From Macrostomum lignano (Eukaryota): a stretch of 64,000 bases of DNA. This document shows positions 41,871 to 64,000 of this stretch, in pieces; the first letter of the stretch is position 1, and each line of letters opens with the position of its first letter. The stretch lies in NCBI GenBank assembly GCA_002269645.1, contig NIVC01000261.1, positions 62,001 to 126,000 of the forward strand, in the 5' to 3' direction. Both the position numbers and the translations under genes were made by a program. Below the pieces are notes generated by a model. It saw only the letters and a program-made list of their open reading frames with translations, was not told the origin of the DNA and ran no database searches.

Positions 41871-44800
41871 TTATTTTTCCGCTATAATTTGCGGCTGAAA
41901 GTCCGGCTTCACGGCTTTGGCTAAACTCTCAGCGTAGAGATCCAATCGCTGCGTCATCTGCAATAGAAAATTTTGAAATTAGTAAAACGGCCCTTCTAAG
42001 GGCGAGTTTAAAAATACAACACAATGATGCGATCCAGTTCATAAAGATAATAGTCGTAAGCAGAAAATGACCCTGCTTGTATAGTATTCTTGATAATCAA
42101 GAATTTTTTATTTTGTATTTTTGTTAATCTATTTAATTTTTCGCATTAATTTGAAATCGCGGTCGCGCTGTACTTTATACTCACCCGAAAGCCCCATTGG
42201 TCCTTGACCTGGCGGCAGAGGTTCAAGTCTGCTTCGACTACCAGCAGGCCGTCTGACACCCGCGACAGGCCCTGAGAGTTTAGGAGGGAATTGATTTTTT
42301 TAAAAATTGATTACTCCAATCAAAATTGCAACAAAATATTCCAATCAGATGTAACAACTCATAGCTCGTAGTTGGGAACCAATTGCAAATTTTTATATAG
42401 CATTTTATCCAAGTTGCAATATTACTGTGACTGAAAAATTTATGGATCTTCGTAAGTTATTTTTTCAGTTAACACTATCTTAAGTGCGCATCCCTATGTT
42501 TTAGGGGGGGGGGGCTGTCTCGTAGTTGGGTGCCACTGTCTCGTAGTTGGGTGCCACTGTCTCGTAGTTGGGTGCCACTGTCTCGTAGTTGGGTGCCACT
42601 GTCTCGTAGTTGGGTGCCACTGTCTCGTAGTTGGGTGCCACTGTCTCGTTGTTGGGTGCCACTGTCTCATAGTTGGGTGCCACTGTCTCGTAGTTGGGTG
42701 CCACTGTCTCTTGGTGGGCGCCCCTGTCTGTCGGTGGGCGCCCCTGTCTGTTGGTGGGCGCCCCTGTCTGTTGGTGGGCGCCCCTGTCTCTTGGTGGTCG
42801 TCCCTGTCTGTTGGTGGGCGTCCCTGTCTCTTGGTGGGCGTCCCTGTCTGTTGGTGGGCGTCCCTGTCTCTTGGTGGGCGTCCCTGTCTCTTGGTGGGCG
42901 TCCCTGTCTCTTGGTGGGCGTCCCTGTCTCTTGGTGGGCGTCCCTGTCTCTTGGTGGGCGTCCCTGTCTCTTGGTGGGCGTCCCTGTCTCTTGGTGGGCG
43001 TCCCTGTCTCTTGGTGGGCGTCCCTGTCTCTTGGTGGGCGTCCCTGTCTCTTGGTGGGCGTCCCTGTCTCTTGGTGGGCGTCCCTGTCTCTTGGTGGGCG
43101 TCCCTGTCTCTTGGTGGGCGTCCCTGTCTCTTGGTGGGCGTCCCTGTCTCTTGGTGGGCGTCCCTGTCTCTTGGTGGGCGTCCCTGTCTGTTGGGTGATC
43201 TTGCATAATCTTATATCATCTATCTTGCACAGAAACGGAACTCACAGGACTCCGCGCCCCGTTAGGAGCAGTCACGTACGATGAACCGTAGAAATGACCA
43301 AAATCATGGTGAGCACTCCTGCCGTCACCGGAAGTGAACTCGTGAGCGAAATTCTCCTGTAGGAGAGAAGATAGATACAATATATTCTAATTAAATAAGA
43401 AAAAAAAATTGTGGGTGTTAGACAGAGTGTTAGAGACTCTGTTAGAGTGGGTGTGTTAGACAGAGTGTTAGAGACTCTGTTAGAGTGAGTGTGTTAGACA
43501 GAGTGTTAGAGACTCTGTTAGAGTGGGTGTGTTAGACAGAGTGTTAGAGACTCTGTTAGAGTGGGTGTGTTAGACAGAGTGTTAGAGACTCTGTTAGAGT
43601 GGGTGTGTTAGACAGGATGTTAGAGACTCGGTTAGAGTGGGTGTGTTAGACAGGGTGTTAGAGACTGTGTTAGAGTGGGTGTGTTAGACAGGATGTTAGA
43701 GACTCGGTTAGAGTGGGTGTGTTAGACAGGGTGTTAGAGACTGTGTTAGAGTGGGTGTGTTAGACAGGATGTTAGAGACTCGGTTAGAGTGGGTGTGTTA
43801 GACAGGGTGTTAGAGACTGTGTTAGAGTGGGTGTGTTAGACAGGATGTTAGAGACTCGGTTAGAGTGGGTGTGTTAGACAGGGTGTTAGAGACTGTGTTA
43901 GAGTGGGTGTGTTAGACAAAGTGTTAGAGACTCGGTTAGAGTGGGTGTGTTAGACAGGGTGTTAGAGACTGTGTTAGAGTGGGTGTGTTAGACAGGATGT
44001 TAGAGACTCGGTTAGAGTGGGTGTGTTAGACAGGGTGTTAGAGACTGTGTTAGAGTGGGTGTGTTAGACAAAGTGTTAGAGACTCGGTTAGAGTGGGTGT
44101 GTTAGACAGGGTGTTAGAGACTGTGTTAGAGTGAGTGTGTTAGACAGGGTGTTAGAGACTGTGTTAGAGTGGGTGTGTTAGACAGGGTGTTAGACAGGGT
44201 GTTAGGCAGGGTGTTAGACAGGGTATTAGACAGGGTGTTAGACAGGGTGTTAGACAGGGTGTTAGACAGGGTGTTAGACAGGGTGTTAGACAGGGTGTTA
44301 GACAGGGTATTAGACAGGGTGTTAGAGACTCAGTTAGAGTGAGTGTGTTAGACAGGGTGTTAGAGACTGTGTTAGAGTGGGTGTGGATTTTAGATAAGGT
44401 GTTAGAGACGCGATCAAAAGCCGGTGTTAGACGGGACAGCATGACTCAAACTCACGGTGCCAACTCGGTTGATAGCAACAGAGAAATAATTATTGGCTAT
44501 GGCGGCGTTGCGAGCTTCGATTGGCCAGAAGGCCTCGCTGAGGCTGTCCACAGTGGCGGAGGGGTTGAACACGATTTCTGCGCCGTTCACGCCGTACATC
44601 AGCCAGTTCTGTGGGTGGTGCCGGCCGTAGCAGATGTTCACCGCGATGCGACCGAACTGGGTGTCGAATACCGGATGGCCCAGCTCGCTCTCCATGTAGT
44701 AGGTTGACTGCGGGTGAACGAGTGATAGAGTTCATGAGTTTGAGTGAGTTGAGTTCATGAGTTCATGAGTGAGTTCATGAGTTTGAGTGAGTTGAGTTCA

Positions 44801-47800
44801 TGAGTGAGTTCATGAGTTTATGAGTGAGTTCATGAGTTCATGAGTGAGTTCATGAGTTTATGAGTGAGTTCATGAGTTCATGAGTGAGTTCATGAGTTTA
44901 TGAGTGAGTTCATGAGTTTATGAGTGAGTTCATGAGTTCATGAGTGAGTTCATGAGTTCATGAGTGAGTTCATGAGTTTATGAGTGAGTTCATGAGTTCA
45001 TGAGTGAGTTCATGAGTTCATGAGTGAGTTCATGAGTTCATGAGTGAGTGAACGAGTGAATGAGTGAACGAGGGAATGAGTGAGCGAGTGAATGAGTGAG
45101 CGAGTGTGTGAGTGAGTTATTGAGTGAGCGATTGAATGAATGAGCGAGTGAATGAGTGAGCGAATGAATGAGTGAGCGAATGAATGAGTGAGCGAGTGTG
45201 TGGGTTAGTGAGTGAGTGAGTGAGTTCATGAGTGAACGAGTGAATGAGCGAGTGGGTGAATGAGTGAGTGAGTGAGTTTATGAGTTTATGACTTCATGAG
45301 TGAGTGAACGAGTGAGCGAGTGAATGAGTGAGTGTGTGAGTGAGTGAACGAGTGAATGAGTGAGTGTGTGTGTGAGTTAGTGAGCGAGTGAGTGAGTTAT
45401 TGAATGAACAAGTGAAAGAGATTTCCGACTCAAGAATATGTGAATCCAATACAAGCGTACATGTATATCTGTGAACCCTGGATGACCTTGGAGTTTACTT
45501 TGTGTGTAGTGCAGACATTTTTTATCAAACTGACCGCAACTTTAGATAATGGCATAAGCAATTGCAGTCTCTGTGGAACATTCAGCAGTATTTAGATTAA
45601 AACCATGCACACAAAATTGAAATTCATTAAAAAGTGTAGAAATTTTAATCTTGTTTTAGCTGTAATAATGCATGAGCTTTCGTGTCAGTTTTGCACAAAC
45701 TATTGGGGTGGCCTTCAGAATTTCGAAATTTTGTGCAACCGACAGCTCAGCCGCAGCTATTGAAGGCTGCGTACGGCTGTTCAGTCCAAGGACTGGGGGG
45801 TCGCCACACACACCCCCAATTGCCCCAGCTAATGCTGGCACCCATTTTACAGCTGGGTGAACTGAAGCAATGCAGAGTGAGGTGTCTTGCTCAAGGACAA
45901 AAATTGTTTCTAGTGGGTCAAGAATCGAACCCCAGACATTTCCTTCAGTCGTGAGTTCGACGCTCTAACTACCCCCTTCCCCCACAAACCCACGCCCATT
46001 TTCACCTCATTGAAATCTCCCACTCGCGGTATGTGATTCTTCCTAGTCTTGCCAATCACTTTGCCAGTATTGGAAATCACCACGGCCGTATTCCAGACGG
46101 TGTCGCCGTGTGATTCGTCGCGTTCAAGAATTGGCGACACGATCACCATGTTGTACCGGCCGGCCAGCTGTCGCATCGCCTGGGTGGTTGGGCCATCCTC
46201 GGCCGATTCGGCGAACTGCGTCCACGGGTGCTTCTCCCGGGTGCAGAAGGCGAACGGCATGTCTGTCGGGGTGGGGGGCAAAGGGGACGGGTGAGATTGA
46301 CCAAGACGTTGTTTGACAGTCTACTCGATAGTCTACTCGATAGTCTACTCGATAGTCTACTCGATAGTCTACTCGATAGTCTACTCGATAGTCTACTCGA
46401 TAGTCTACTCGATAGTCTACTCGATAGTCTACTCGATAGTCTACTCGATAGTCTACTCGATAGTCTACTCGATAGTCTACTCGATAGTCTACTCGATAGT
46501 CTACTAGATAGTCTACTTGATAGTCTACTCGATTGTCTACTTGAAAGTCTACTCGATAGTCTACTCGATAGTCTACTCGATAGTCTACTAGATAGTCTGC
46601 TCGATAGTCTACTCGATAGTCTACTTGATAGTCTACTCGATAGTCTACTCGATAGTCTACTAGATAGTCTGCTCGATAGTCTACTCGATAGTCTACTCGA
46701 TAGTCTACTCGATAGTCTACTTGATAGTCTACTCGATAGTCTACTCGATAGTCTACTTGATAGTCTACTCGATAGTCTACTCGATAGTCTACTCGATAGT
46801 CTACTCGATAGTCTACTCGATAGTCTACTAGATAGTCTGCTCGATAGTCTACTTGATAGTCTACTCGATAGTCTACTCGATAGTCTACTCGATAGTCTAC
46901 TCGATAGTCTACTCGATAGTCTACTAGATAGTCTACTCGATAGTCTACTCGATAGTCTACTTGATAGTCTACTCGATAGTCTACTCGATAGTCTACTAGA
47001 TAGTCTGCTCGATAGTCTACTTGATAGTCTACTCGATAGTCTACTCGATAGTCTACTCGATAGTCTACTCGATAGTCTACTCGATAGTCTACTCGATATT
47101 CTACTCGGTAGTCTACTCGATAGTCTACTCGATAGTCTACTCGATAGTCTACTCGATAGTCTACTCGATAGTCTACTCGATAGTCTGCTCGGTAGTCTAC
47201 TAGATAGTCTACTCGATAGTCTACTCGATAGTCTACTCGATAGTCTACTAGATAGTCTGCTCGATAGTCTACTTGATAGTCTACTCGATAGTCTACTCGA
47301 TAGTCTACTCGATAGTCTACTCGATAGTCTACTCGATAGTCTACTCGATAGTCTACTCGATAGTCTACTCGATAGTCTACTCGATAGTCTACTCGATAGT
47401 CTACTCGATAGTCTACTCGATAGTCTACTCGATAGTCTACTCGATAGTCTACTCGATAGTCTACTCGATAGTCTACTCGATAGTCTGCTCGATAGTCTAC
47501 TCGATAGTCTACTCGGTAGTCTACTAGATAGTCTACTCGATAGTCTACTCGATAGTCTACTCGGTAGTCTTGCCTGCTTATTACTCTACTTGATGGTCTA
47601 CTAGATAGTCTACTCGATAGTCTGCTCGGTAGTCTTGCCTGCTTATTACTCTACTTGATGGTCTACTAGATAGTCTACTCGATAGTCTACTCGATAGTCT
47701 GCTCGGTAGTCTTGCCTGCTTATTACTCTACTTGATGGTCTACTAGATAGTCTACTCAATAGTCTACTTGACAGCCTACTCGATAGTCTACTCGATACTG

Positions 47801-50067: not shown

Positions 50068-50483
50068 GGCGCCCCTCAGATGAAATGGCGCCCCTCAGAT
50101 GAAATAGCACCCCACAGATGAAATGGCACCCCCTCAGATGAAATAGCACCCCACAGATGAAATGGCACCCCCTCAGATGAAATGGCACCCCACAGATGAA
50201 ATGGCACCCCACAGATGAAATGGCACCCTCACAGATGAAATGGCGCCCCTCAGATGAAATGGCACCCCCACAGATGAAATGGCACCCCCACAGATGAAAT
50301 GACGCCCCTCAGATGAAATAGCACCCCACAGATGAAATGGCACCCCCACAGATGAAATGGCACCCCCTCAGATGAAATGGCACCCTCACAGATGAAATGG
50401 CGCCCCTCAGATGAAATGGCGCCCCTCAGATGAAATGGCGCCCCTCAGATGAAATGGCACCCCCACAGATGAAATGACGCCCC
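50068..50483. repeat. 18-19-bp minisatellite (CCCC[T/A]CAGATGAAATGGCA), left part; interrupted by the viral element
   Basis: The same unit resumes in the same orientation at 60658. Confidence 0.95.
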
Positions 50484-50912
50484 ACTACGTAACACGTAGA
50501 TTGTGGTTGATTTTGGAGGTGAGGTGGGTGTCAGAGCCAATGCAAATTCAACGCCTATCTAAATACATTAGACCGATTCTAATTGGTCCAGAGTCATTAT
50601 GTGAGACATTTATGCTCTCATGTAAAATCTATACATGTAATCAGTGTATCGTACAGCAGCGACGAGTACAATATAGTACGCATAATTAGCGCATCGCAGT
50701 TGTTGTACGCAGAAGCGCGCGCGCGCCCCCATCCCCACACAATGCAGCATTGGTGTACGCAGAATTAACTGTCCATATTAACTGTCCATATACCCAAAAT
50801 TGGCAGAATTAGAGCGCCCACCCCATAACTGTCCATATTATTACTTGTCCATATTTACTGTCCATCCCAAAATTGGTGTACGCGCAGAATTTTAGCGTCC
50901 GCCCACCCCATA
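50484..50912 (+). repeat. Left terminal inverted repeat (429 bp)
   Basis: Reverse complement of 60228-60657 apart from two small indels seen by eye (a GC dinucleotide and 3 bp). Confidence 0.95.
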
Positions 50913-51218
50913 ACTGTCCATATTATTACTTGTCCATATTTACTGTCCATATATACACCCAAAATTGGTGTACGCACAGAATTGTCTGTGACCCCACAAA
51001 ATTGGCGGCCCCACGCGGAGGCATGATGAGTCAGTCAGCCGCTGTAAACCGCTGCTGCAGCCTGTTATTTCCACTCCTTCCATACTTCACTCTCTAGAAT
51101 TCAGCCCTCGTCGACACTCCGAGACAATTACGTCATCCCCCAACCCCTCTCCCAAATAAGTTTTCAAAAGGCGTATATATATTTACACAAAAAGCCGGCC
51201 GAGCTTTGATACGTATAT

Positions 51219-51869
51219 TTATTTAGCATACACAATTGGGTGACGACCCAAAACGTTTGAATAATAGCGAGCAGGAGCATTTTGCAAACAGTTTACAATC
51301 AAGTATGAGTAGGGGTCGCGAGTAGCATCCTCATACGTTTTGACAAAACTTTTTGGATTAGTGGGGACCAGCTGCCTTGCAATATGAGACACTGTGCTGG
51401 CATCCCGTACATTGCGGAATAAAACAAGGTAGTTCGAATTGAGTGACTGAGTTCGGTGCTCCTTACCCTTTGCAAACAGGTTTTGCACAAGATACCAAAG
51501 TCGGAACCCCACGTGGGAGACTTTGCGCGTGAAAAAAGTTGTAAAAGCGCCACTCTTTTCCATGGCATGCATTTGGTCGTCGACGACAAGCAGAATATTT
51601 GGTTCAGGGACATATTGTTCAGGATCAAATGTACACGAACGAAAATTTACAGGGTAAGGCAATTCAAACAGTTCAGGATCCGGATAGTGGCCAAACCAGT
51701 CTACGCGAATCGGCTTCGGATCTTGAAAAAATTCTTGTCTCAATAGGTTTTTCACAAGTGTGGTCTTGCCGCTTTGAGCCACCCCAGCAAAAATTGCCGA
51801 CGTTTTGGGGGCAAATTTTAAAGAGTCGGGGTCTATTGTTTGATACATTTTGATAGGCCGCCCAATCAT
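51219..51869 (-). CDS. A32/FtsK-like genome-packaging ATPase
   Basis: Walker A GVAQSGKTT, Walker B LLVVDD, VQNLF, RTQSLNSNYLVLFRNVRD; typical of Polinton ATPases. Confidence 0.92.
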   Translation of the reverse strand: MIGRPIKMYQTIDPDSLKFAPKTSAIFAGVAQSGKTTLVKNLLRQEFFQDPKPIRVDWFGHYPDPELFELPYPVNFRSCTFDPEQYVPEPNILLVVDDQMHAMEKSGAFTTFFTRKVSHVGFRLWYLVQNLFAKGKEHRTQSLNSNYLVLFRNVRDASTVSHIARQLVPTNPKSFVKTYEDATRDPYSYLIVNCLQNAPARYYSNVLGRHPIVYAK

Positions 51870-51871
51870 AT

Positions 51872-52321
51872 TTATGGATGATGCTGCTTTATTTGTAGAC
51901 AGTGATTCTGCACCATCAAGTCGTTCTCGTAAAGATTTGTGCTATAACAGTCGCGCAATATTTTTTCAATTGACAGACCCTCCAGAAAGTGTTTTTCAGC
52001 CACAAATATTACATGAGCCCCGCAGGTCACACTTAGCTGATGCTGTACAGGATGCCGGTTCATGGCCACCTTCACAGGGACATACTTTGCGATCCACAAC
52101 TTTAATAAATCTGGCACAGGATCGATACACACGGGGTCAAAAAATGTCACGCTCTCATCGGCATGAAGACAAATTAAAGCCCAGTGAGTGCCTGGTAGAT
52201 TGCCAGTGTCAAAGTTAATCACGTATGCAGCAGGATAAACAGGCTGCGGAATCCTGTCAACTGGTGTTACTCGAACAGGGACAGGTAGTATTAGACGTTC
52301 TAATATATCTAGACTATTCAT
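51872..52321 (-). CDS. Adenain-like capsid maturation cysteine protease
   Basis: VINFD..PGTHW (His), FFD (Asp), Q...S.TCG (Gln/Cys). Confidence 0.9.
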   Translation of the reverse strand: MNSLDILERLILPVPVRVTPVDRIPQPVYPAAYVINFDTGNLPGTHWALICLHADESVTFFDPVCIDPVPDLLKLWIAKYVPVKVAMNRHPVQHQLSVTCGAHVIFVAEKHFLEGLSIEKILRDCYSTNLYENDLMVQNHCLQIKQHHP

Positions 52322-52371
52322 ATCGGCATGAATATGGTCGTTATTCGAGAATAAAAAAGAGATGTTTGTTT

Positions 52372-53655
52372 CTACACGTAGTCTAGAATAACCTGACGAC
52401 CGCGAGTGATTTGCACAGTATTGTCAAAGTAGCCAAACACCAACACGTTGATTCCTGCGGCCAAGGCAGCAGAAAACTTTATTTGTAGCGTCAGATTCCC
52501 TCGCTCGCGAGGCATGCTATGCCCGCCCAGCTCCATGTCGGGCATGAGATTCCAGGCGAAGAAGCAGTAGCCAGCTCCATAGTCGGAATATGATACGTCA
52601 ATATCCAGGTCCCGATTCATCTTTCCTAGGCTTTTTAGTAGCATGGCATACTCGCGAGCATAGTTATGAACACCGAATCGAGGAGTAAACGGTTGTCCAC
52701 ACAGACTGACTCCGTCCTTATACAGAGCGACACTGTCGGCACCAAATGGCTCAAAATTAAACGGGTTATGTGTAGCCACACCGTTGTATGCGCCGCTGTT
52801 CACCATGCCAACAACCACTAGTTTAGGCTTTTGTTCAGGAAATATATTATTGATTGACATGTCCCGAACACCGCCAGCCACTGAAGTATTGTGCACAACA
52901 AGTCGCTCAATCGGATAGATTGCATTCTGTTTGCCTAGTTGTTCTTCAATCTCCAATGCCAATTGGGGGTTTGCCTTGACGCGGCGCACATGTAGTTTGG
53001 CACTCTCGAGTACTAGCCGCGCATCAACCCCGTCCGCGTGGTTTTCCAGAACGAAGCCGGAATTGTGCATGGTCAGCGTAATTACCATATCAGTGTATGG
53101 CAGTAGCATTCGGTCGTTGGTAACAAAAAAGTCTAAACTAAGAGGTCCATAAAGGTGAAAGGTGCGTGAGTTTGCCGCCATCGCCTTGCGGGCTACAAAG
53201 CCAGGATTTCCAACCACAGCCATTTGACCTCCAGCGTCCTTTGCGTAGCCCATCATTCTCAGTTGATTAGTTTTTGAATCGTGTCCGTAATTCAAACACG
53301 TGAGAATATAGGCCTTGTAAGCGTGGTTGTTATTGCTCGACTCTACGTGTGTCCCGTTGATTGTCAACGTGACGTTTTTAAACATGCTTTCAAGGACGTA
53401 ATTGACCGGCGCAACATTCGAATCAGCAGCAAGATTTGTACCATTAGACTGCTTAACGCGGGCCTTAATCTCGAGGTCAATGTCGTTAAGATCGATAAAC
53501 GTCTCACCACCAACAATCCTAAATTCGACCACGCTGGCATTTTCAACACTGGCAACAGGGTGAACTTCTTCAGTGGTGGCGCTAATTGCAGCAATTTGGT
53601 GTGCGCGAGGAGCAAAAAGCTCGAATTCCGACTTTGTACACAGGCACTCAGTCAT
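52372..53655 (-). CDS. Major capsid protein (double jelly-roll, Polinton PY/hexon-like), 427 aa
   Basis: N-terminal C.KSEFELF..P..VEF.I.G...IDL; VAPVNY.L.SMF; P..VVVGMV..AYNG...NPFNF; GYCFFAWNL.PD; GN..L.IKF pattern of Polinton MCPs. Confidence 0.9.
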   Translation of the reverse strand: MTECLCTKSEFELFAPRAHQIAAISATTEEVHPVASVENASVVEFRIVGGETFIDLNDIDLEIKARVKQSNGTNLAADSNVAPVNYVLESMFKNVTLTINGTHVESSNNNHAYKAYILTCLNYGHDSKTNQLRMMGYAKDAGGQMAVVGNPGFVARKAMAANSRTFHLYGPLSLDFFVTNDRMLLPYTDMVITLTMHNSGFVLENHADGVDARLVLESAKLHVRRVKANPQLALEIEEQLGKQNAIYPIERLVVHNTSVAGGVRDMSINNIFPEQKPKLVVVGMVNSGAYNGVATHNPFNFEPFGADSVALYKDGVSLCGQPFTPRFGVHNYAREYAMLLKSLGKMNRDLDIDVSYSDYGAGYCFFAWNLMPDMELGGHSMPRERGNLTLQIKFSAALAAGINVLVFGYFDNTVQITRGRQVILDYV

Positions 53656-53698
53656 TTTTCATTCAACAGCGGCTTAGTGTGGTGCTCTAATAGACAGA

Positions 53699-54067
53699 TC
53701 AGTTATTGGCACGGGTTTTTTTATTTATAGAGTCGAAAATATCAGAATGCTGCAGTCTTTTTCTCGTTTTTTTGTTAGTCATCTTTCTTCGTCTTTGTCT
53801 GCCGCTACCTCGTTGTGCGACTGTGTCCTTGAAAGCATCTTTAGCTGCCTGGACAGAGTTACGCAATGCCGCTTCTTTCAAGTTCCCGCCTTGATCGAGT
53901 GTGTCGCTAACTGTTGTAGCTAGGGCTCGTGTTCCGTGGCGAAGAATATTTTTGCCAAAACTCTTTAAAATTGGCAGGGCAAATCGGGCAATGCTGCCAA
54001 ACAGGCCGTTGCCGCGCTGTGCACCGGAAAATACCGGTAAAGCTCCTCCGATCAAGATTGAAGGCAT
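53699..54067 (-). CDS. Small basic core/membrane-active precursor protein (adenovirus pVII/pX-like; cupiennin-like amphipathic helix)
   Basis: LIGG, QRGNG and QRGSG protease-type sites; amphipathic GLFGSIARFALPILKSFGKNIL; Arg/Lys-rich tail; located between penton and MCP. Confidence 0.65.
   Translation of the reverse strand: MPSILIGGALPVFSGAQRGNGLFGSIARFALPILKSFGKNILRHGTRALATTVSDTLDQGGNLKEAALRNSVQAAKDAFKDTVAQRGSGRQRRRKMTNKKTRKRLQHSDIFDSINKKTRANN
53721..53729 (-). promoter_or_regulatory. TATAAATAA box upstream of the MCP gene (one example of a motif also at 54116, 55321, 56508, 57276, 57559, 59906)
   Basis: About 66 nt upstream of the MCP ATG; embedded in S-I-N codons of the upstream ORF. 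Confidence 0.65.
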
Positions 54068-54111
54068 ATTGTCGATCAGTTGCTACCTTTTATTCGTGAA
54101 AACTTCTTTAT

Positions 54112-55265
54112 TTATAGCTTAATTTCACGAATGTTGATCGATAAAACAGTTTTGCCTCGAAGAATCCGATCCATTAACTTGCCCATATCGTCACAGATTT
54201 GCACCTCAATGGTTTTGAATGGGTGTTTCACCAACGGTAAGTAGGATGGATTGACAAACTCGTAGTACTCTCGTTCGCCGTATACCTTTTCATTCAAAGG
54301 AATTGCCCCAAGCAGGGGACTTTGACGTCTCCAACAATGGCAGAGTCGACAATATTTGAATAGATGTACATAGTTTGTACACCATTTGTTAAATCGATTG
54401 GTCGTTTAGCGGTCTTTGGAGTTTCATTGAAAACATCTTCGCGAAAGCCGAGAATGGCAGCAAGCTCTCCAATGTCGAATAAAATGTTTTCAATGGGTTT
54501 GTACTCACACCGGTTCAGAAAAGGGTTGTAGCGGAATGCATCCACTCTCGTCGCTGGACTTATTGGGAGCTTTGAAACGACGCCCCAAAGCGCTCCATTA
54601 ACATAATTTAAGAGCTCATCAGGCGTGCGGTAGAATCCTTTAGCAATCCGCAGTGACGTTCTAGAAGGCCAGACACTCTTTTCAAACGTTAGAGTCATCG
54701 GACTCTCTATGGAGGAGGAGGACTCCAATTCTATAGCGAATACTAACGAATTTCTTGGGTTTAATAAAAAAGTCGTTACTTCGATATTTGATTTATTTCC
54801 AGCGTCATCAACCTTTTTAAACATGCTACGCACATTACTGGACAGCCTAATGTTCGCACCATACCATGATTTGTTCACAATTGAAATTTGGCCTTCCTGT
54901 GAACGCTCAATGCAAATCATCGCATTATCGTCTTGCTCATATTTTAGATCGGCGATGATTGCATCAACCACTTCGTTGGCTGTTGATAGCCCCGCGGCGA
55001 GAGAAACCGACGCAAACTGTTTATACGTGGAGGCGGGTTTTTCTCTCACCTCAATGTCAATCACTTCATCCTCGGGAGCGTTGGTCAGGACATCAACCAT
55101 TCGATTATCGGGGACGGTTTTGAATTCTTTACAAAAGTAGATCCGTTCGATGCAGACTTCATGATTCGGAAAGTGGAGGGTGTCGGGCAAATTAATGCTA
55201 TAATGTGCCGAATTATTCTCAGGATAGTGCTCAACGCACGCATTGCTAGGTAGGAATAGATGCAT
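54112..55265 (-). CDS. Minor capsid (penton) protein, ~384 aa, with a 1-nt frameshift at GGGG 54315-54318
   Basis: N-term LFLPSN..YPEN..Y.I.LP..L...EV....I; C-term MYIYSNIV..IVGD.KVP[LL] continues in the -1 frame as EF.NP.YLPL.K..F.TIEV.I.DD.G, the conserved Polinton penton end. Confidence 0.85.
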
Positions 55266-55316
55266 TGTAATATACTACACGTTTCGAGTGTATGTGTGTT
55301 CATCCTTGTCTTATAT

Positions 55317-56372
55317 TTATAACTTCCTCAACGGTACAAATGCATTGAACGACTCGGGATAGCCGCGCCAACTAACGAAATGATGAGCGACACCATTGAT
55401 GATGACATTGCGACGCAGAATTTTGTCTATAACAAAGCGGTCTGGTCGAACCGTCTTTGAAAGTTCATTATAGTAGAATCGACCCTCGATTTGTTCTCCA
55501 GATAGGTCGGAAATGCGATAAAAATGAGGCGGTCCCGGGCATACTTGAGACACAACGTAAACTTCTTCGCTGTACATATCGTATGCTTCCTTGTCAAAGG
55601 CTCGACGAGATTTTGAAATTCTGACAAAGTCCCCTTTTTGGTAAACTGGTTCATCATATTCAGGATCCTTGTAGAGCTTTTCCCACAATTCTTTTTGATT
55701 GTGCAGACCGACACTCGAAGGTTTCATATCAATAGTAGAGTGTACTGTGTTGTTGTAACTTTTAACCAATATTGGCAAATAGTCGATCCAACGCCACGTG
55801 TTTTTATGCTCAAAGTAGCGAGCTAAACGTTTTCGGAGAGTCCTAATCAGCCTTTCAGCCATATTTGCCTTGTATACAGAGTTTGTACTGTACATTTTGA
55901 TATTATGGGCTTTCAGTAAGTTCTGCATGCGATTGTTATAAAACTCGGTACCTCGATCAACGTGTAGATATAAAGGCTTAATGGGGAAGTCTTTGATCAT
56001 GCTTTCAAAAGCCTTTGGAGTGTCGCTTTTCAATTTTATTGACTGACAAAAAGCCAATTTACTAAGCACGTCAATTGCAACTAGAATATATCGATGACCA
56101 TCATTCCATTGTTCGTATCGCGACATGTCCATCAAATCCGCTTGCACAGTTTCCATGAAGCCTCCCGACATTACTTTTCCGGTTCGGAATTTTCTTTTAA
56201 CCCTCTTGTGCCGGGTGTAGCTCGATTGGGTCTTCAGCCATTCGTCTGTTTGGCGTCTCGTCAGGGAGGGGACCAGCCGTTTGGCCTCCTGATATACACG
56301 GGCAGCATTTGTAAAAGCGGCGTCCCCCTGTTCGTACACTCTCCGAAGAGCGGTTTTCACCCTCATTCGCAA
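55317..56372 (-). CDS. Retroviral-like (rve, c-int) integrase with C-terminal chromodomain
   Basis: D (QADLMD), D (HVDRGTEF), E (AERLIRTL); YNNTVHSTI.MKP; chromo-like IDKIL..VSWRGYPESFN. Confidence 0.95.
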   Translation of the reverse strand: MRMRVKTALRRVYEQGDAAFTNAARVYQEAKRLVPSLTRRQTDEWLKTQSSYTRHKRVKRKFRTGKVMSGGFMETVQADLMDMSRYEQWNDGHRYILVAIDVLSKLAFCQSIKLKSDTPKAFESMIKDFPIKPLYLHVDRGTEFYNNRMQNLLKAHNIKMYSTNSVYKANMAERLIRTLRKRLARYFEHKNTWRWIDYLPILVKSYNNTVHSTIDMKPSSVGLHNQKELWEKLYKDPEYDEPVYQKGDFVRISKSRRAFDKEAYDMYSEEVYVVSQVCPGPPHFYRISDLSGEQIEGRFYYNELSKTVRPDRFVIDKILRRNVIINGVAHHFVSWRGYPESFNAFVPLRKL

Positions 56373-56503
56373 CTAGATTCGATGCACAGCATGAGTAATT
56401 ACACTTGAACTCCACAGACGGTTTGTCTGAGCAAAGCTTTGAAGTTACAGCTGCGGCACCCATGATCCAAAAACAGATTATAAATCATGAAAATGATTTC
56501 TAT

Positions 56504-57178
56504 TTATAGTTTTTTTAACGTCTCGTATTTTACTGCTGGTTTCTGCCGCCTCTTTGGTTCGCGAAGTTGGTATGAAGCATGCCTGTAGGCATTGCTGCCA
56601 CGATCTTCATATTTTTTAATTTCATTCAGGCCACTGGCTTGGTCTTTGTGGAAGTCGTTGTAGAAATCATTAGTTCCAATTGCTTGCTCGACTAAAAAAT
56701 CGTCTCGATCCGGATCCGTGCCGACTTCTTTTTTCACACTGACTTCTTCTTGTTGGCGTCGTCCTAGTAGAGCTTTTGCAATATCTGCCTCTTCGGCCAG
56801 GGCCCAAAAAGCGGTACTATATTTTGGGCTTGGGCGGTCGCGCCTTTCATTCGATGTAATCTCCTTCAATAGATCGAAAATATTGCTTCCTGGCCAGGTT
56901 TTTCCATCAAATACAATTTCCCACGACTTGTTGTACTCCAAATTTGGGTATCTTTCTGTCAGCATGTCCCAAACACGTTGTTGTCGTTCAGGAAAACGAT
57001 TACTCTTCTTTTGCTTGATCTGACTTAGTTTATTTTGGAGTTGAGTGTTGTATTCAATGAGTTTTTCATATTCTGTTTTGGATGCAATTTCTCGGGGTGC
57101 GCCTTGACTTAGTCTATTAAATTCTTCTTCTGGTACAACAACGTATTTATTCATTTTAGCGACCAAGTAGTCCGCCAA
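56504..57178 (-). CDS. Uncharacterised Polinton-type protein (W..GSNIFDL motif), 224 aa
   Basis: Open 224-aa frame with its own TATA box; the EIVFDG..WPGSNIFDLL motif resembles conserved hypothetical Polinton ORFs as I recall them. Confidence 0.6.
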   Translation of the reverse strand: MADYLVAKMNKYVVVPEEEFNRLSQGAPREIASKTEYEKLIEYNTQLQNKLSQIKQKKSNRFPERQQRVWDMLTERYPNLEYNKSWEIVFDGKTWPGSNIFDLLKEITSNERRDRPSPKYSTAFWALAEEADIAKALLGRRQQEEVSVKKEVGTDPDRDDFLVEQAIGTNDFYNDFHKDQASGLNEIKKYEDRGSNAYRHASYQLREPKRRQKPAVKYETLKKL

Positions 57179-57476
57179 ACAGGCTTGATATTAGCGGTGC
57201 AGCAACAGATGCAAGGATGGGTAGAAAGCCACCGACTTGAGGATTCGAGAGAAGCATATTCTTCTTCCTATTTATAGACAATTTTGTGTCTGCCAATTCA
57301 CGCAACGATCTTCTGTATCGCTTTAATCGCAGATACTGTTTCGGAGAAAGATCGATATTTCCCCGGAGCACGTTGTGACTCAATTCACAGAGACAATGAA
57401 TCAGTTCCTTGCCTGCACCTCGAATAATGGCCCGCCGAAGAGCGGGAGCTCTGCGAGCTCGCCGCGACAAGAACAT
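57156..57476 (-). CDS. Small basic virion precursor (106 aa) ending in a QVGG-cleavable hydrophobic amphipathic peptide
   Basis: CLCEL..NVLRGNI.L...Y.RLKRYRRSLRELA basic helix, then QVGG|FLPILASVAAPLISSLFGGLLGR. The ATG at 57476 fits the TATA at 57559 better than the ATG at 57533. Confidence 0.7.
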   Translation of the reverse strand: MFLSRRARRAPALRRAIIRGAGKELIHCLCELSHNVLRGNIDLSPKQYLRLKRYRRSLRELADTKLSINRKKNMLLSNPQVGGFLPILASVAAPLISSLFGGLLGR

Positions 57477-57639
57477 AGTCTGGAGATTCCGTTTGTCATT
57501 TTGTTTAGCAAAAAGATGTTGGTTGCAGTGCACTGCAATTTATGCACAATATATTTATAGACAATTTCATAGCAGCTTGTACGTACATACAAATTCGGTA
57601 CAGTGGTAAAGCAGTAAAGTTACGCAACAGCTACATGGA

Positions 57640-58118
57640 TTAGACATGCAAAACGCTAGTCACATGATCGTACATTTGACAGAGCTCTTTAAAGTTTCGT
57701 ATTCCAAGGAAAACAAGGCGGCCATTCTTTCCGCATAATAAACATTTAGCATTGCGAAATGGAGACTTTATTACTATTCCATTGAAAACTTCACACTCCC
57801 ACTTCACCCAGCGGGACCGGAGTATGCAATTTGGAAAAAGTTTGGCCATCTGTCTACTTCAGCGCGGTAAGTACTAGTGGTAACAACAACAGAAATTGGT
57901 TTACATTGAGGAAAAAGACGCAAAACTTGGTTGACTGAGCGACAACCGAATACAATTGCAGACAAAGAACGCTGAAAAAAGTTGATTGTACATTTTCCTA
58001 TTCGCAAATTGATAAGAGCTCTTGGTCTGCGAAATGTCCGTGCGCTCGCCCAGTCCAAGTCAGGCATGCGGCTCCATTTCGCGCAAAACACTCGGTTCAC
58101 ACACTCGACGTTCTGCAA
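57640..58118 (-). CDS. Divergent TATA-box-binding-protein (TBP)-like protein, split by a 1-nt frameshift near 57835-57850; no in-frame ATG at its 5' end
   Basis: LQNV..VN..C and INFF..S.IVFGCRS..Q align to TBP repeat 1. WECEVFNGIVIK..KCLLCGKNGRLVFLGIRNFKELCQMYDHVTSVL aligns to repeat 2 ([44 protein letters not shown]). Confidence 0.65.
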
Positions 58119-58303
58119 GTAGATTTTTCGGCAGTTTTTACTTTCGTATCCTTCTTGGGGCTTTCGACCGCTTCTTTGATTCGTTGGCTGCTACTAGTTT
58201 CGATTGATGCTGTCGCTTTCTGGCCTGATTTTAGGCACCTTTGGCTGCTTCTCCTTGACAAGCTTTGGTGGTTTCTTTGCTTTCTTGCTTACTTTCTTGA
58301 CGC

Positions 58304-58846
58304 CTACCTTGATTTTTGGAGGTGGCGTCCAAAGCAACGATCGAATGCCTGTTTGGCTTCTTCGACAAACTGTAGCTGTTGAATTTTTGGCATTGCGGTC
58401 AAAACAGCGTCTCGAATCACGGCCGTGTCGAGAGTAAACAGAATCCTGTAGTAGCCGCTCTTGTTTTTGTAATCCTCTACAGGCAGTCCGTTTTGGTCGT
58501 ACATTTTAAAGTCGTGAGCCAGCCCAAACGCTGCACTGTCACCTCCAAACGCTGGGTTGTAGCCCAGCAGAGCTAGACTTTCGCTGGAAAGGTGCTCCGC
58601 CACAGTGTTGAAAGTGTAGGGTATGCAGCTTTCAATGTGTTTTTGTGCAATGATGATGAATTCGCGACCTTCGTTGTCAGTACGCACGCCCTTGACGATC
58701 AAAACAGGGACCGCATTGGCCAAGTAGAGAGGTCCCTGTTCGTCATATTCAATGTCAAACGTTTCAACCCCGTTGAAGCTCGGACCTCGCGGTTTGAGTG
58801 CCAGCAGCTCTCGCTTGACGCAGTTGAAGTCTTGCACTGTCTCCAT
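58304..58846 (-). CDS. Putative OB-fold single-stranded DNA-binding protein (T7 gp2.5/DUF2815-like), 180 aa; probable Lys-rich tail in the -1 frame to 58194
   Basis: YDQNGLPVEDYKNKSGYYRILF..KIQQLQFVE resembles the D.N..PI.D...SG.Y.R...N.Q pattern of gp2.5-like SSBs; own TATA at 58915. Confidence 0.4.
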   Translation of the reverse strand: METVQDFNCVKRELLALKPRGPSFNGVETFDIEYDEQGPLYLANAVPVLIVKGVRTDNEGREFIIIAQKHIESCIPYTFNTVAEHLSSESLALLGYNPAFGGDSAAFGLAHDFKMYDQNGLPVEDYKNKSGYYRILFTLDTAVIRDAVLTAMPKIQQLQFVEEAKQAFDRCFGRHLQKSR

Positions 58847-58941
58847 GTCTCTTGTCTGTTTAGAAAAATTTGCAGGTACGGGCGCTTGCAGATGCTCCGG
58901 GCTGGTGCTTATATACCCGAGAGTCTCAATAAGTTTTTGTT

Positions 58942-59478
58942 TTAATTACACGATAACGAGCTTTTTACAGAGTTGTCGTTATCGAGGATTCCGGAAAAAA
59001 TGAACCTTTTGTTCCTATTTTCGGGTGCTGGCGTTGGAGGTGTGCTGAAATCCTTGCTCCAAGTTGCTGGTAGTTCAAGCTTTGGCGGCCTGTTCCTCTT
59101 GTGCTTTGGCAGCCAAAAATTCCAAATCTTTTGTTGCTCCTCCCACGACGGATTATACAGATCTTGATGGTTCCGAAAACGTATTTTTTGGCGATGCTCT
59201 TCACTTAGTATCGGAGCCAGTAATCTCTCCATTCGTGCTAAATCAGCTTTGAATCTCATTTTGTCCCGTAGTTGCTCATTTATCCTGGCTGCTGCGTAGT
59301 CTTGGCTGTCGTAGGGGCCTTGATCAATTTCCTCGACCTTGGCATTGAAGGTGACTAATCGCTCAGAAATCGGTTTGCTGTGGCAAATGCACAACCAGTC
59401 AGCAGATTTTTTCAAGGCCTCATATTCGTCTTTTTCCTCGTTCGATAATAGGGGGTAGTCTCTGGAAATCCAGCTCAT
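58942..59478 (-). CDS. Hypothetical viral protein, 178 aa
   Basis: ATG-initiated ORF with upstream TATATAAG (59607); no recognisable domain. Confidence 0.6.
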   Translation of the reverse strand: MSWISRDYPLLSNEEKDEYEALKKSADWLCICHSKPISERLVTFNAKVEEIDQGPYDSQDYAAARINEQLRDKMRFKADLARMERLLAPILSEEHRQKIRFRNHQDLYNPSWEEQQKIWNFWLPKHKRNRPPKLELPATWSKDFSTPPTPAPENRNKRFIFSGILDNDNSVKSSLSCN

Positions 59479-59670
59479 TTCTCGTCAAGCACTTGCTGCG
59501 TTGTTCGCACTAGTGGTGGGGATGTTATTCGAGCTTGAAAAACTGTCGAGAATCCGAGAAAAATTTGCAGGTACGGGTGCTTGGTGCCCCTGGTTGGTGC
59601 TTATATACCCGAGAGTCTCAATAAGTTTTTGTTTTAATTATATGTTAACGAGCTTTTTACGGTGTTGTCG

Positions 59671-59838
59671 TTATCGAGGATTCCAGAAAAAAGAGACTTT
59701 TGTACCTATTTTCGGTGTTGGCGTTGGAGGTGTGTTGAAATCTTTGCTCAAAGTTGTTGGCAGTTCATGCTTTGTCGGTCTGATCCTCTTGTGCTTTGGG
59801 AACCAAAAATTGCTTGTCAAACACTGCGTTTTCCACAT
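59671..59838 (-). CDS. 55-aa ORF paralogous to the C-terminus of the 178-aa protein
   Basis: MWKTQCLTSNFWFPKHKRIRPTKHELPTTLSKDFNTPPTPTPK.. versus NFWLPKHKRNRPPKLELPATWSKDFSTPPTPAPE; TATAAATAAG at 59906-59897. Confidence 0.5.
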   Translation of the reverse strand: MWKTQCLTSNFWFPKHKRIRPTKHELPTTLSKDFNTPPTPTPKIGTKVSFFWNPR

Positions 59839-60227
59839 GATTGGGTTGTTAATTGAACTTGGTGAATTTAGATAAGCGGCCGAGAATCCAAATTTTCTTA
59901 TTTATAGTTTGCTGTCTGAACAAAGTTGGTTTGGCATCTTGTTAAACGAGAATATTTCATGCATAGAAGTTTGTGTTTTCAGACCTTGATGACGTGTCTG
60001 GCTATAAAGTTAGCATTGTGGCTCGACCGGGTTGTTGCGTAACACTGCTGCAGGTAGCTATAGCGGCCAGCGCAGGGCAGAGGGGTGGACAGCGGCGATT
60101 TACTGGCTGACTGACTCATCATGCCTCCGCGCGGGGCCACCAATTAATTGTGGGGGTCAAAGAATATTTTCTTGGATGGGTGGGCGCTACAATTCTGTGC
60201 GTACACGAAGTTTGGTATATAAACAGC

Positions 60228-60657
60228 TATGGGGTGGGCGGACGCTAAAATTCTGCGCGTACACCAATTTTGGGATGGACAGTAAATATGGACAAGTAAT
60301 AATATGGACAGTTATGGGGTGGTAGGCGCTCTAATTCTGCCAATTTTGGGTATATGGACAGTTAATATGGACAGTTAATTCTGCGTACACCAATGCTGCA
60401 TTGTGTGGGGATGGGGGCGCGCGCGCTTCTGCGTACAACAACTGCGATGCGCTAATTATGCGTACTATATTGTACTCGTCGCTGCTGTACGATACACTGA
60501 TTACATGTATAGATTTTACATGAGAGCATAAATGTCTCACATAATGACTCTGGACCAATTAGAATCGGTCTAATGTATTTAGATAGGCGTTGAATTTGCA
60601 TTGGCTCTGACACCCACCTCACCTCCAAAATCAACCACAATCTACGTGTTACGTAGT
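60228..60657 (-). repeat. Right terminal inverted repeat (430 bp)
   Basis: Reverse complement of 50484-50912. Confidence 0.95.
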
Positions 60658-60866
60658 CGCCCCTCAGATGAAATAGCACCCCACAGATGAAATGGCACCC
60701 CCACAGATGAAATGGCACCCCCACAGATGAAATGGCACCCCCACAGATGAAATGGCACCCCCACAGATGAAATGGCATCCCCACAGATGAAATGGCACCC
60801 CCACAGATGAAATGGCACCCCCACAGATGAAATGGCACCCCCACAGATGAAATGGCGCCCTCTCAT
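60658..60866. repeat. 18-19-bp minisatellite, right part of the interrupted array
   Basis: Same unit and orientation as 50068-50483; begins with the TSD copy. Confidence 0.95.
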
Positions 60867-61539
60867 ATGAAACTATACAATACAACTACAAACTACACAA
60901 TTTTATCTCTCTTTCAATTTTTAGGTGAATAAACACCAAATTTCACATATACGAGTAGCAAAGCCTTCTTCTTAAGCCTGTCTGTGTGGCTTCGTTGGAC
61001 CATGCGTAAAAAACATGCAGTTATAGACTTGTTTTTGGGTTTTTTAATTGTTTTAATACTTCCACGGTTATGCAGTAAGTGATGTTTAGCGGGGTTGATG
61101 ATACTAATCGGATAGAGGGGTCTGTGGCCGGACTAGTGTTGAAAAGCGCTTGGAGTTCGGGACCGCACAAGCCTATAGTCTCCCATTTAACCGTCGGTGG
61201 GGGACACAACTTGATGCCATTATCCGAGTGCCTCTGGCGGAAGCTGGAGGGGCCATGAGGGGCTTACGTACCACAACTGGTGATGCTGATGATGAGGGGT
61301 AGAGAAGAGAACCTGTAGAAGCTATTCTCTATTCAAGGTGCTGTCATTAAAACTAAACGGTCGGTAAGTGGTGGATAGGCGGGGCGAGCTTGGGGCTTCA
61401 GCCCTGGTTTCGGGGCTGCCGGGTTTTTCGATCTTCCTGGCGGTTTGCCAAGAATTCTACATCCGAACTCAGTGTTGTTAGCACTACTAAGGGCCGGTAG
61501 ATCCGCCCTTTTTGGAGGTGGGGTGGGTGTCAACCCTCC

Positions 61540-61930
61540 TCGCCTCTCATTGGCTGGCGCGCGCGCCGCAGGCGCGTGGCGCCAAGCGCCATCCAGGCGC
61601 CAATCAGGCGCCCATGCCGCAGGCGCACCCTCCCGACATGTACCGACATGCCCACCCTCCCGATATGTACCCCGATATGTATGCCCTCCCTCCCGATATG
61701 TATGCCCTCCCTCCAGAGCAGCAGGCGCCCATGCCGCAGGCGCCCCAAACCGCAGGCACCCCGAGTGTACACTCTCCCGAGCCAAAGGTACACTCTCCCG
61801 AGCCAAATGTACACTCTCCCGAGCCAAAGGTACACTCTCCCGATATGTACACTCTCCCACTCTCCCGATATGGGTGTACACTCGCCCAATACAGGTGTAC
61901 ACTCTCCCGATATGTAGTCAACGATACGTA
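61540..61930. repeat. GC-rich short-repeat cluster (GGCGCC.., CCCGATATGTA, GTACACTCTCCCGA units)
   Basis: Several short tandem motifs. Confidence 0.7.
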
Positions 61931-62057
61931 CCCCGCAGGCACCCTATACCTCACGCCCTGCCCCCACCTAGCCTCTTCCCCTCTCTCAGCCACATCTCAA
62001 CTAGCGAAATCGAACCCAGGTCGCGCCCATACTAGGCCACTACACGGTTTGGGGGTA

Positions 62058-62250
62058 TAGGGAGCGAGAAGTTTTAACCCTGATGCTGACGCAGCCCTGT
62101 ACAGTGAGCGTGTACGGGCAGAGAGGGGTGGGGCGGACAGAGAACCAGCCACTAGGTTGTTATACTGTTGAAGCATAGGGAGCGAGAAGTTTTAACCCGA
62201 TGCTGACGCAGCCCTGTACAGTGAGCGTGTACGGGCAGAGGGTGGGTGGA
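62058..62250. repeat. Direct repeat of ~70 bp (TAGGGAGCGAGAAGTTTTAACCC..GTACGGGCAGAG) at ~62058 and ~62177
   Basis: Two near-identical copies read directly. Confidence 0.75.
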
Positions 62251-64000
62251 AAGAGATGTGAATAACACAGCCTGCTGCAGGAGCCGGATAGAGAGGCGCA
62301 TGCTAGGACAGAGAGACAGTGTGAGTCACACACACCCCCACAGAGAGAGCCGTACAGAGGATAGAGAGCTCCCTCCCCAGTTGCAGGGGACAGAGAGGCA
62401 GGCAGGGTATGCAGGGGCATGCGAACAGTCAAGGGGCCACGCGAGGATAGAGTGGAGGAGCAGAGATGTGTATGGACAGAGAGCAGGCCACGCGTGCGTA
62501 GTGTGAGGGAACAGAAACATATGGAGCAGGAGGGAGATAGGAAGCAAACGCGCAGGGTAAGGGAGCCACACAGGGCGGTACAGTGAGACACGGGCAGGGG
62601 TGGAGCCGTGCGTGGACAGAGCTGAACGGCATGGTCAGCTGCAGGAATAGGATGATAGAGAGGCGCGGATAGGAGGGACAGAGAGCAGTGTGCAGGGGTA
62701 GGCAGCCACGCGGGCAGGGGAACAGAGGCGCGTGTAGCCAGTTGCAGCCCGGGACAGAGAAGTGTGAAGGGGGCCTGGGACAGAGTTCCGAGCAAGGCAC
62801 AGAGAGGTAGGGTCCGGTAGCCATGTATAGACAGGGACCCACGCGAGGGCAGGACAGGGGAGTAGACATGCAAGTTGCATGCAAGGCCAGAGAGGTGTGC
62901 GCGGAGGGAGACAGAGAGCAGTGTGTAGGGGTAGGTAACAGCAAACTTTAGTAGAGGTGCGTGCGGGGACGGAGAAACCAGTCTGAGCGTACAGAGACGT
63001 TACAGAGAGGTACACAAACAGAGAACAAAGCGAGCAGAGCACATGTGTAGGCGCAGAGACGTGAGGGAGAATCGACCAAAACACGCTATGTATTATCAAA
63101 AGTTGGTTTTAGTGCAGCATATTTAATAGCGGGTAGTATAATAGTATGTACATAGTAGGTATAATGGTAGTAATAATAGTAAGTATATTAGCCCAAAAGG
63201 TAGGCTAAAACAGGCTAAACTGTGTGTACGCATCCTCATCACCCCACAAGCCCCTCTCCCGCCAGACTCACTCTTCCAAACCCTCCTGTATTGCTGTATG
63301 AAGGAAAATATAGTGTAAAAATACAGATCTTAACCGTCAGACCGCTGAAATCAGGGCACACTAGAGGGGGTTTCGGGGTCTGCATGCTCTATGTAAGCTG
63401 CTTGAGGAGGTTCCAAGGGCGTTGTGAGGGTTTCCATTATGTTTTGAAAAAAAACTAGGGGCTTAAATACAACGTTTTATTCAAAAAGTAGGTTATTTTA
63501 ATGAAATAGCTGACACAATCATTGTCGAGAGTAGAAATTTTTATAAGAAACCAGGCATTTTAGCAAAAATAAACCTTCAAACCACATAAAATTGAATAAA
63601 AAGCAGACATTTTTAATTATAAACCGCAAGTATTTTAATAGAAAAGTAAGCAAACAAGGCACAAAACCAGCAAATTTTACCTTTTTCATTTTAATGTTAC
63701 TGATAAGGTAGAGAGTAGAAACTTGTGAGCTGTACGGAGTTAGAAAGTATTAACCAATATGTATCGTATGAATTATTAGTTCAGTACCAGCCATTGGTCA
63801 AGCGAGCATTTATGAAGTTATTACGAGTGATGAGGGATAGAGAGCTATATACAGGAAGACAGTATCCTTCTAAACCACCACGAACAGATTGCTAATAGAG
63901 ATAAGCTTTGTCGGTAGGCAGTATGAGTAAGCGAAGGCGGGGTAAATACTTTTCCACATGCCAGACAGAACAGTATTGTGCTAGGATTTCTCTCGAAATC

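Follow-up and report, generated by a model that had tools for sequence, protein, structure and literature searches.

Can a small Polinton-type element carry its own promoter-recognition factor, and if so, how would that factor be expressed? The question is raised by a stretch of 64,000 nucleotides (nt) of the Macrostomum lignano genome (contig NIVC01000261.1, positions 62,001 to 126,000, assembly GCA_002269645.1), which we call the window. A sequence-only reading had proposed that two overlapping open reading frames (ORFs) within it join into a two-repeat protein of about 160 amino acids (aa) resembling the TATA-binding protein, TBP. The explanation that we favour, with a probability of about 0.5 for the whole, is that the frames encode a TBP domain made as a fusion with a single-stranded DNA-binding protein (SSB), and that the fusion acts as a switch in a Polinton whose polymerase is supplied in trans.

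The two frames overlap on the minus strand (57640-57849 and 57804-58169), and the start of repeat 1 and the repeat 2 stretch from which the likeness to TBP had been read both lie inside them. A DNA search of the genome with the window gene gave 42 matches, and a single open frame spans both pieces in 11 of the 20 closest copies. The two frames are thus one gene, broken near 57,815, and the homologues with an intact frame on which the sequence-only reading had made its case depend are present. Contigs from all four public runs show single-base differences from the window near this break and near a second one at ~58,330 in the upstream gene, with further single-base differences at two places between them; these short-read contigs do not have the break. 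The UniRef gene model P0012 crosses the same insertion, and its upstream gene is unbroken there. We therefore take both breaks to be assembly errors or lesions of the window copy. The window gene belongs to what we call family A; family B is a sister family, 76% identical and represented by many identical copies, and the proteins P0001 and P0002 are outside relatives. Between families A and B the ratio of nonsynonymous to synonymous substitution (dN/dS) is 0.086, similar to that of neighbouring genes, with dS >1.6. This corresponds to strong purifying selection on the TBP frame, equal on both repeats.

Is the encoded protein a relative of TBP? Neither the pieces nor uninterrupted copies of family A gave a direct match in Pfam, the PDB sequences, PHROGs or the Atlas. 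Against the profile PF00352, with its curated cut-off of 22.9 bits, family B scores 22.6 bits, just below it, and the outside relatives 24.6 (P0002) and 18.1 bits. A profile built from four family sequences matched six among 1.84 billion proteins at E ≤ 0.001, including an archaeal-type TBP (E = 1.6e-4); one of the six is a false match to a repetitive sequence. TBPs account for 15 of the 16 PDB sequence matches at E ≤ 1, the best E being not below 0.015. With profiles made only from cellular or other-family TBPs, all four family members outscored all 500 shuffled sequences, and profile-profile alignment with cellular TBPs is colinear over 125 columns (E = 7e-5, probability 63%). The likeness is therefore more than chance, in agreement with the sequence-only reading, and we have little doubt, from these comparisons, that the gene is a TBP-fold homologue, and it would work like a viral TBP. 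In the profile part of the check proposed at the time, P0002 passes the Pfam cut-off and family B falls just short of it; in the structure part, a single-sequence model of the domain reached a pLDDT of only 42, at which a fold search is uninformative.

The aligned columns run from strand 3 of repeat 1 to the end, across both repeats; the first strand was matched by eye only, and repeat 1 lacks about 11 residues in its helix 2. At the positions that we take to be those of the four DNA-intercalating Phe residues, families A and B have kept one and changed one in each repeat. Thus the replacement of at least one Phe claimed earlier is seen, but two of the four positions appear changed rather than one, and the full set of a TBP is absent from both families. 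Both Glu of the acidic pair in the C-terminal stirrup, the contact for TFIIB, are invariant in families A and B, P0001 and P0002. The roles of these residues are in part those given in PMC7221094.

How is the domain expressed? No ATG lies upstream of the first TBP strand in any family-A or family-B copy examined, and there is no TATA-type site in 58915-57559, between the promoter of the upstream gene (ORF-U) and the next gene. The TBP-like frame, which overlaps ORF-U in a conserved manner and has neither start codon nor TATA site of its own, is thus probably not a stand-alone gene; the single two-repeat gene of the sequence-only reading stands, but its free-standing product is probably wrong. 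The best fold matches of a low-confidence model of ORF-U are T7 gp2.5 and African swine fever virus (ASFV) CP312R, and ORF-U is quite probably an SSB-type protein. CP312R is reported to bind single-stranded DNA (PMC9963768).

All 42 loci scanned, of which 40 are distinct, have a GT donor and a CAG acceptor, each falling between codons: those of ORF-U for the donor and those of the TBP frame for the acceptor. The search patterns came from families A and B, and the independent comparison is that between these two lineages. Donor and acceptor are 195-206 nt apart in family A and 66-67 nt in family B, and every remainder modulo 3 occurs. At the protein level, conservation in four outside relatives of ORF-U stops at Ile-Lys-Val. 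In all six lineages this is followed by G, R or C, matching the requirement for G at donor position +5, and further on each ORF-U tail is the +1 shadow of the TBP start. These patterns make it fairly probable that splicing joins ORF-U to the TBP domain; most likely, the fusion has the SSB-like gene upstream as its first exon and the TBP-like gene as its second. Contigs from the four public runs weigh against this, as they contain no spliced joint and cross the junction unspliced; these runs have no RNA record.

The element that carries the gene occupies 50484-60657 (~10 kb). Its inverted repeats are 440 bp long, its ends are of the ACTAC type, the target duplication measures 6 bp, and all genes are on one strand. 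Its terminal repeats, target duplication and an rve integrase above the Pfam cut-off bear out the earlier assignment to a Polinton type. The integrase is the only element gene confirmed by a library; the labels capsid, minor capsid, protease, packaging ATPase and core-type are provisional, and those of capsid, protease and ATPase find support in a likeness to ORFs of polymerase-bearing elements. The polymerase gene pPolB was found neither in the window element nor in a family-B copy read end to end, along whose whole length three more family-B copies align. The minimal virus of the sequence-only reading is therefore not self-contained. Polinton termini are 5′-AG; the ends begin AC in families A and B and in the polymerase-only elements described below, and AG in families C and D, which are Mavericks of the same genome. 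Thus the element works like a Polinton, but has neither the polymerase nor the end sequence of one.

The stereotyped TATA boxes noted earlier are upheld. TATAAATA precedes six genes and TATATAAG precedes ORF-U and the 178-aa ORF, a pattern repeated in family B, and the element holds seven of the ten TATAAATA sites of the window, for which the expectation over its whole length is 1.3. No such site lies ahead of the protease and ATPase genes. TATAAATA is a canonical site for host TBP as well, and Pfam revealed no TFIIB-like gene in the element.

A possible source of polymerase is a second type of element, of ~9 kb (among them L157 and L158; G000:C173, C558), that has pPolB and a PC4-like gene between inverted repeats, with 6-bp duplications and ACTAC ends. 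Queries with capsid, ATPase, integrase, ORF-U and TBP found no match in any of nine such stretches, two of them read essentially whole. In two diverged copies, motif A of the polymerase is interrupted by a GT-AG intron, and the PC4-like gene of this type carries the same GGGTATATAAG site. A 23-nt subterminal motif is common to this type and the window element at the same offset; it has 296 matches genome-wide, against 0 for the control, and one family-B copy and three pPolB copies have the identical 23-nt end. From the first 100 listed motif places we picked 31 head-to-tail pairs 6.6-11 kb apart, omitting unpaired, shorter and longer ones. Ten of these contain capsid and TBP genes, nine pPolB, none both, and 12 no listed gene. 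Among the sampled stretches, then, two element types have complementary gene sets and matching ends, as in a bipartite genome. The shared end sequences suggest a two-part Polinton, and a partnership of window-type with polymerase-only elements is moderately probable.

Gene-less derivatives with the identical end type are also present. In gene-less elements of 7.6-8.7 kb with family-A ends, near-perfect inverted arms of 2.5-3 kb flank a central spacer (L152-L155). An 8.5-kb element with nested repeats (also L166) begins 830 bp from the TBP-bearing one. Positions ~7-26 of the terminal repeat vary mosaically among copies, while both ends of one copy agree (window 50484-50513; L053, L055, L057, L148, L152, L155, L157); variants are common to family-B and polymerase-only elements.

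On the explanation that we favour, the gene would be a fast-evolving viral TBP domain in the virion and integrase half of a polymerase-less Polinton (Maverick) family. Transcription would start from the TATATAAG promoter of ORF-U. The unspliced RNA would give an SSB-like protein with a basic tail, and removal of the short GT-AG intron would put the SSB-like domain in frame with the TBP domain. This product would occupy the single strands that are displaced as protein-primed replication proceeds; it would also bind the TATAAATA promoters of the element and recruit host TFIIB and Pol II, and the capsid-side genes would be switched on after the start of replication. Polymerase would come in trans, most likely from the ~9-kb elements with matching ends. 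Whether the TBP domain acts on the element's own promoters, as in the self-specified switch of the sequence-only reading, is, on the sequences, an evenly balanced matter. The fullest version can be put forward only tentatively: a segmented Polinton, one segment with a spliced pPolB and PC4 and the other with capsid, integrase and an alternatively spliced SSB-TBP fusion, which would link strand-displacement replication to capsid-gene activation through host TFIIB and Pol II.

What else might the locus be? The broken window copy, which matches no library by itself, could suggest a decayed fragment of a host TBP gene or a chance frame. The selection test rules this out; the frame is open in most copies, relatives occur in independent data sets, and the family's position in a tree is far from the host TBP genes. 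A real TBP domain might nevertheless be reached without splicing, by programmed ribosomal frameshifting or non-AUG re-initiation in the overlap with ORF-U. In family B and in four outside relatives alike, ORF-U runs open into the overlap at a +1 offset; families A and B each have a TTG codon ahead of the first TBP strand, and no spliced contig was seen in the four runs. We nonetheless consider this quite unlikely. The offset in family A varies among copies and from that of family B, and in some family-A copies a stop precedes the overlap; purifying selection acts on the TBP frame all the same. Codon usage that resembles a splice donor where the conserved domain ends also counts against frameshifting, and no canonical slippery heptamer was seen by eye.

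A further possibility, unlikely in our view, accepts the TBP fold but not the recognition of element promoters: the protein would be a decoy for TFIIB or other partners of host TBP, or a nucleic-acid-binding aid in replication or packaging, and host TBP would read the TATA boxes. In its favour, two of the four intercalating Phe positions differ from TBP and repeat 1 has eroded, TATAAATA is a canonical host site, several TATAAATA sites overlap stop codons or AATAAA and so are possibly 3′-end signals, and family C has TBP but no one-box-per-gene pattern in the three elements scanned. Such a role fits less well with equal selection on both repeats and with TATAAATA sites that are exact and conserved in position across families with dS this large; moreover, PMC7221094 argues that viral TBPs retain DNA-binding signatures. 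The two-part genome has its own competitor, which we think somewhat unlikely, in which families A and B, having lost pPolB, are no more than non-autonomous or satellite derivatives served by any helper Maverick, and the polymerase-only elements are unrelated deletion products. The genome does contain complete Mavericks with pPolB, capsid and TBP (nine of ten stretches), and gene-less derivatives have the same ends, so these ends are mobilised promiscuously. Complete Mavericks, however, start AGTAG, and families A and B and the polymerase-only elements ACTAC. The gene sets of the two partial types complement each other, each type shows 6-bp target duplications, and terminal and subterminal sequence is common to both. 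The polymerase-only pPolB has no tblastn match to that of family C.

TBP is common among the Mavericks of this genome. A search with PF00352 gave 150 scored matches from 330 candidates, the top 12 being host TBP and TBP-like genes. Of ten more stretches retrieved, nine have a Maverick-type element in which pPolB neighbours a TBP gene that starts with an ATG of its own. The two of these proteins that were scored, one each from families C and D, reach 81.6 and 70.2 bits, and a third divergent TBP type adjoins another pPolB. Mavericks of families C, D and E likewise have the TBP-like gene near the 216-aa and 106-aa ORF pair, but unlike the window element they have a TBP with its own ATG that overlaps an exonuclease-like gene and adjoins pPolB, a PC4-type gene in place of ORF-U, and AGTAG ends. 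In a weakly supported tree the window family lies far from host TBP and TBP-like genes and does not group with the TBPs of families C, D and E; the tree is too weak to count acquisitions of TBP. TBP-like genes occur in several polymerase-bearing Maverick families (L096-L135, L142), and in family C repeat 1 is nearly invariant and repeat 2 far more variable. The unnamed metagenome proteins P0003 and P0005 group weakly with the window family. The cores of the host TBP and TBP-like genes appear intronless, each on three contigs (L061, L067).

The presence of TBP alone had been glimpsed before; what is new is its probable SSB-linked expression and the apparent two-part genome. The earlier view that TBP is not among the core genes of Polintons has to be qualified, since 'TBP' is already labelled in the legend of Figure 5 on MELD viruses (Starrett et al., 2021, PMC8502044), and clearer TBPs are seen here in pPolB-bearing Mavericks. 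The accessible parts of the other Polinton papers searched mention neither TBP nor TATA (PMC11071308, 10.64898/2026.06.19.733378, 10.1101/2023.08.22.554363, 10.1101/2023.10.16.562556 and PMC8097293). From the same parts of these sources, MELD viruses or adintoviruses are, like the window element, animal Polinton-type elements with integrase and virion genes, but those in Figure 5 have PolB; nothing further is said there about TBP, splicing is not mentioned, and no SSB overlap or split genome is described. Vertebrate Mavericks (Barreat and Katzourakis, PMC8097293) share the terminal inverted repeats, 6-bp target duplications, integrase, capsid, protease and ATPase, and their genes are under purifying selection; pPolB is among their eight intronless core genes, whereas the window element lacks pPolB and seemingly uses introns. 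TBP function, SSB-TBP coupling and a split genome are not described in the portions of the Polinton literature available to us, and gene timing and transcription are essentially unstudied there.

The closest functional parallels are the TBP of nucleocytoplasmic large DNA viruses and ORF24/BcRF1 of beta- and gamma-herpesviruses, likewise divergent TBP domains in double-stranded DNA viruses. According to PMC7221094, TBPs of large DNA viruses have, like the window gene, lost the N-lobe regulator surface, and most such viruses supply their own TFIIB. Viral TBPs are also linked to late genes, and some work in a six-protein complex; the window element has no TFIIB-like gene by Pfam. Unlike these TBPs, the window domain keeps the acidic stirrup pair and is linked to an SSB-like gene. 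A two-part genome would recall the bidnaviruses, whose pPolB-using bipartite genomes have segments with matching termini (PMC8502044), but those are parvovirus-like single-stranded DNA viruses, and here both parts are integrated elements with terminal inverted repeats and Polinton-type genes. If our explanation is correct, late transcription would be tied to replication by a single compact protein that unites TBP and SSB, where herpesviruses use a six-protein complex, and a 10-kb genome segment would contain a one-protein late-gene switch. A split Polinton genome would bear on the origin of segmented pPolB viruses and of polymerase-less Polinton-like elements. With a defined factor, a predicted splice junction at defined positions and two promoter motifs that are exact, the element makes the question testable.

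Table 1. Positions of the element's features and of its neighbour in the window
Feature	Position	Strand	Remarks
Left terminal inverted repeat	50484..50923	+	Starts ACTAC, preceded by CGCCCC target duplication; carries 23-nt subterminal motif
Probable packaging ATPase, 216 aa	51219..51869	-	Walker A; similar to ORFs of pPolB elements, E 1e-20; P-loop matches sub-threshold only
Probable adenain-type protease, 149 aa	51872..52321	-	His/Asp/Gln-Cys motifs; weakly similar to other elements; no library match
Probable major capsid protein, 427 aa	52372..53655	-	Resembles ORFs of pPolB-bearing elements, E to 1e-40; no library match
Basic core-type ORF, 122 aa	53699..54067	-	Label presumed
Probable minor capsid protein, 323 aa	54294..55265	-	Position and N-terminal motif; no library match
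Retrovirus-type (rve) integrase, 349 aa	55317..56366	-	Pfam PF00665, 34.6 bits, above cut-off
216-aa and 106-aa ORF pair	56504..57476	-	Also beside exonuclease-like and TBP genes of pPolB-bearing elements
TBP-like two-repeat domain	57640..58112	-	157 codons where uninterrupted; window copy broken near 57,815; no start codon of its own
Predicted GT-AG intron	58113..58307	-	195 nt in window; retained form encodes basic tail of ORF-U
ORF-U, predicted first exon	58308..58846	-	Probable T7 gp2.5/CP312R-type single-stranded DNA-binding protein; broken near 58,330 in window, unbroken in P0012
178-aa ORF	58942..59478	-	Conserved in family B
TATAAATA sites	57559, 57276, 56508, 55321, 54116, 53729 (53722..57559)	-	Each 49-142 nt upstream of one of six consecutive genes
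Seventh TATAAATA site	59906		
GGGTATATAAG-type TATA site	58908..58918	-	69 nt ahead of ORF-U; another at 59607, 129 nt ahead of the 178-aa ORF
Right terminal inverted repeat	60217..60657	-	98% identical to left; followed by CGCCCC
Neighbouring 8.5-kb element, left part	61484..64000	+	Ends of ACTAC type, with the subterminal motif; no match to a virus gene

The TBP-bearing element lies within a short-period satellite, apparently inside an intron of a beta-ureidopropionase gene that runs on the same strand (window 44400-46300, 50300-60850), and P0012 runs this gene and the element together in one model. Family A contains a degraded partial duplication (window 58862-59121 against 59557-59811); at the same place family B has a Fic-domain gene and a 117-aa ORF (L053:2765-3544). 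A transposon of THAP/P-element type is nested in one family-B copy only (L054:2370-5201).
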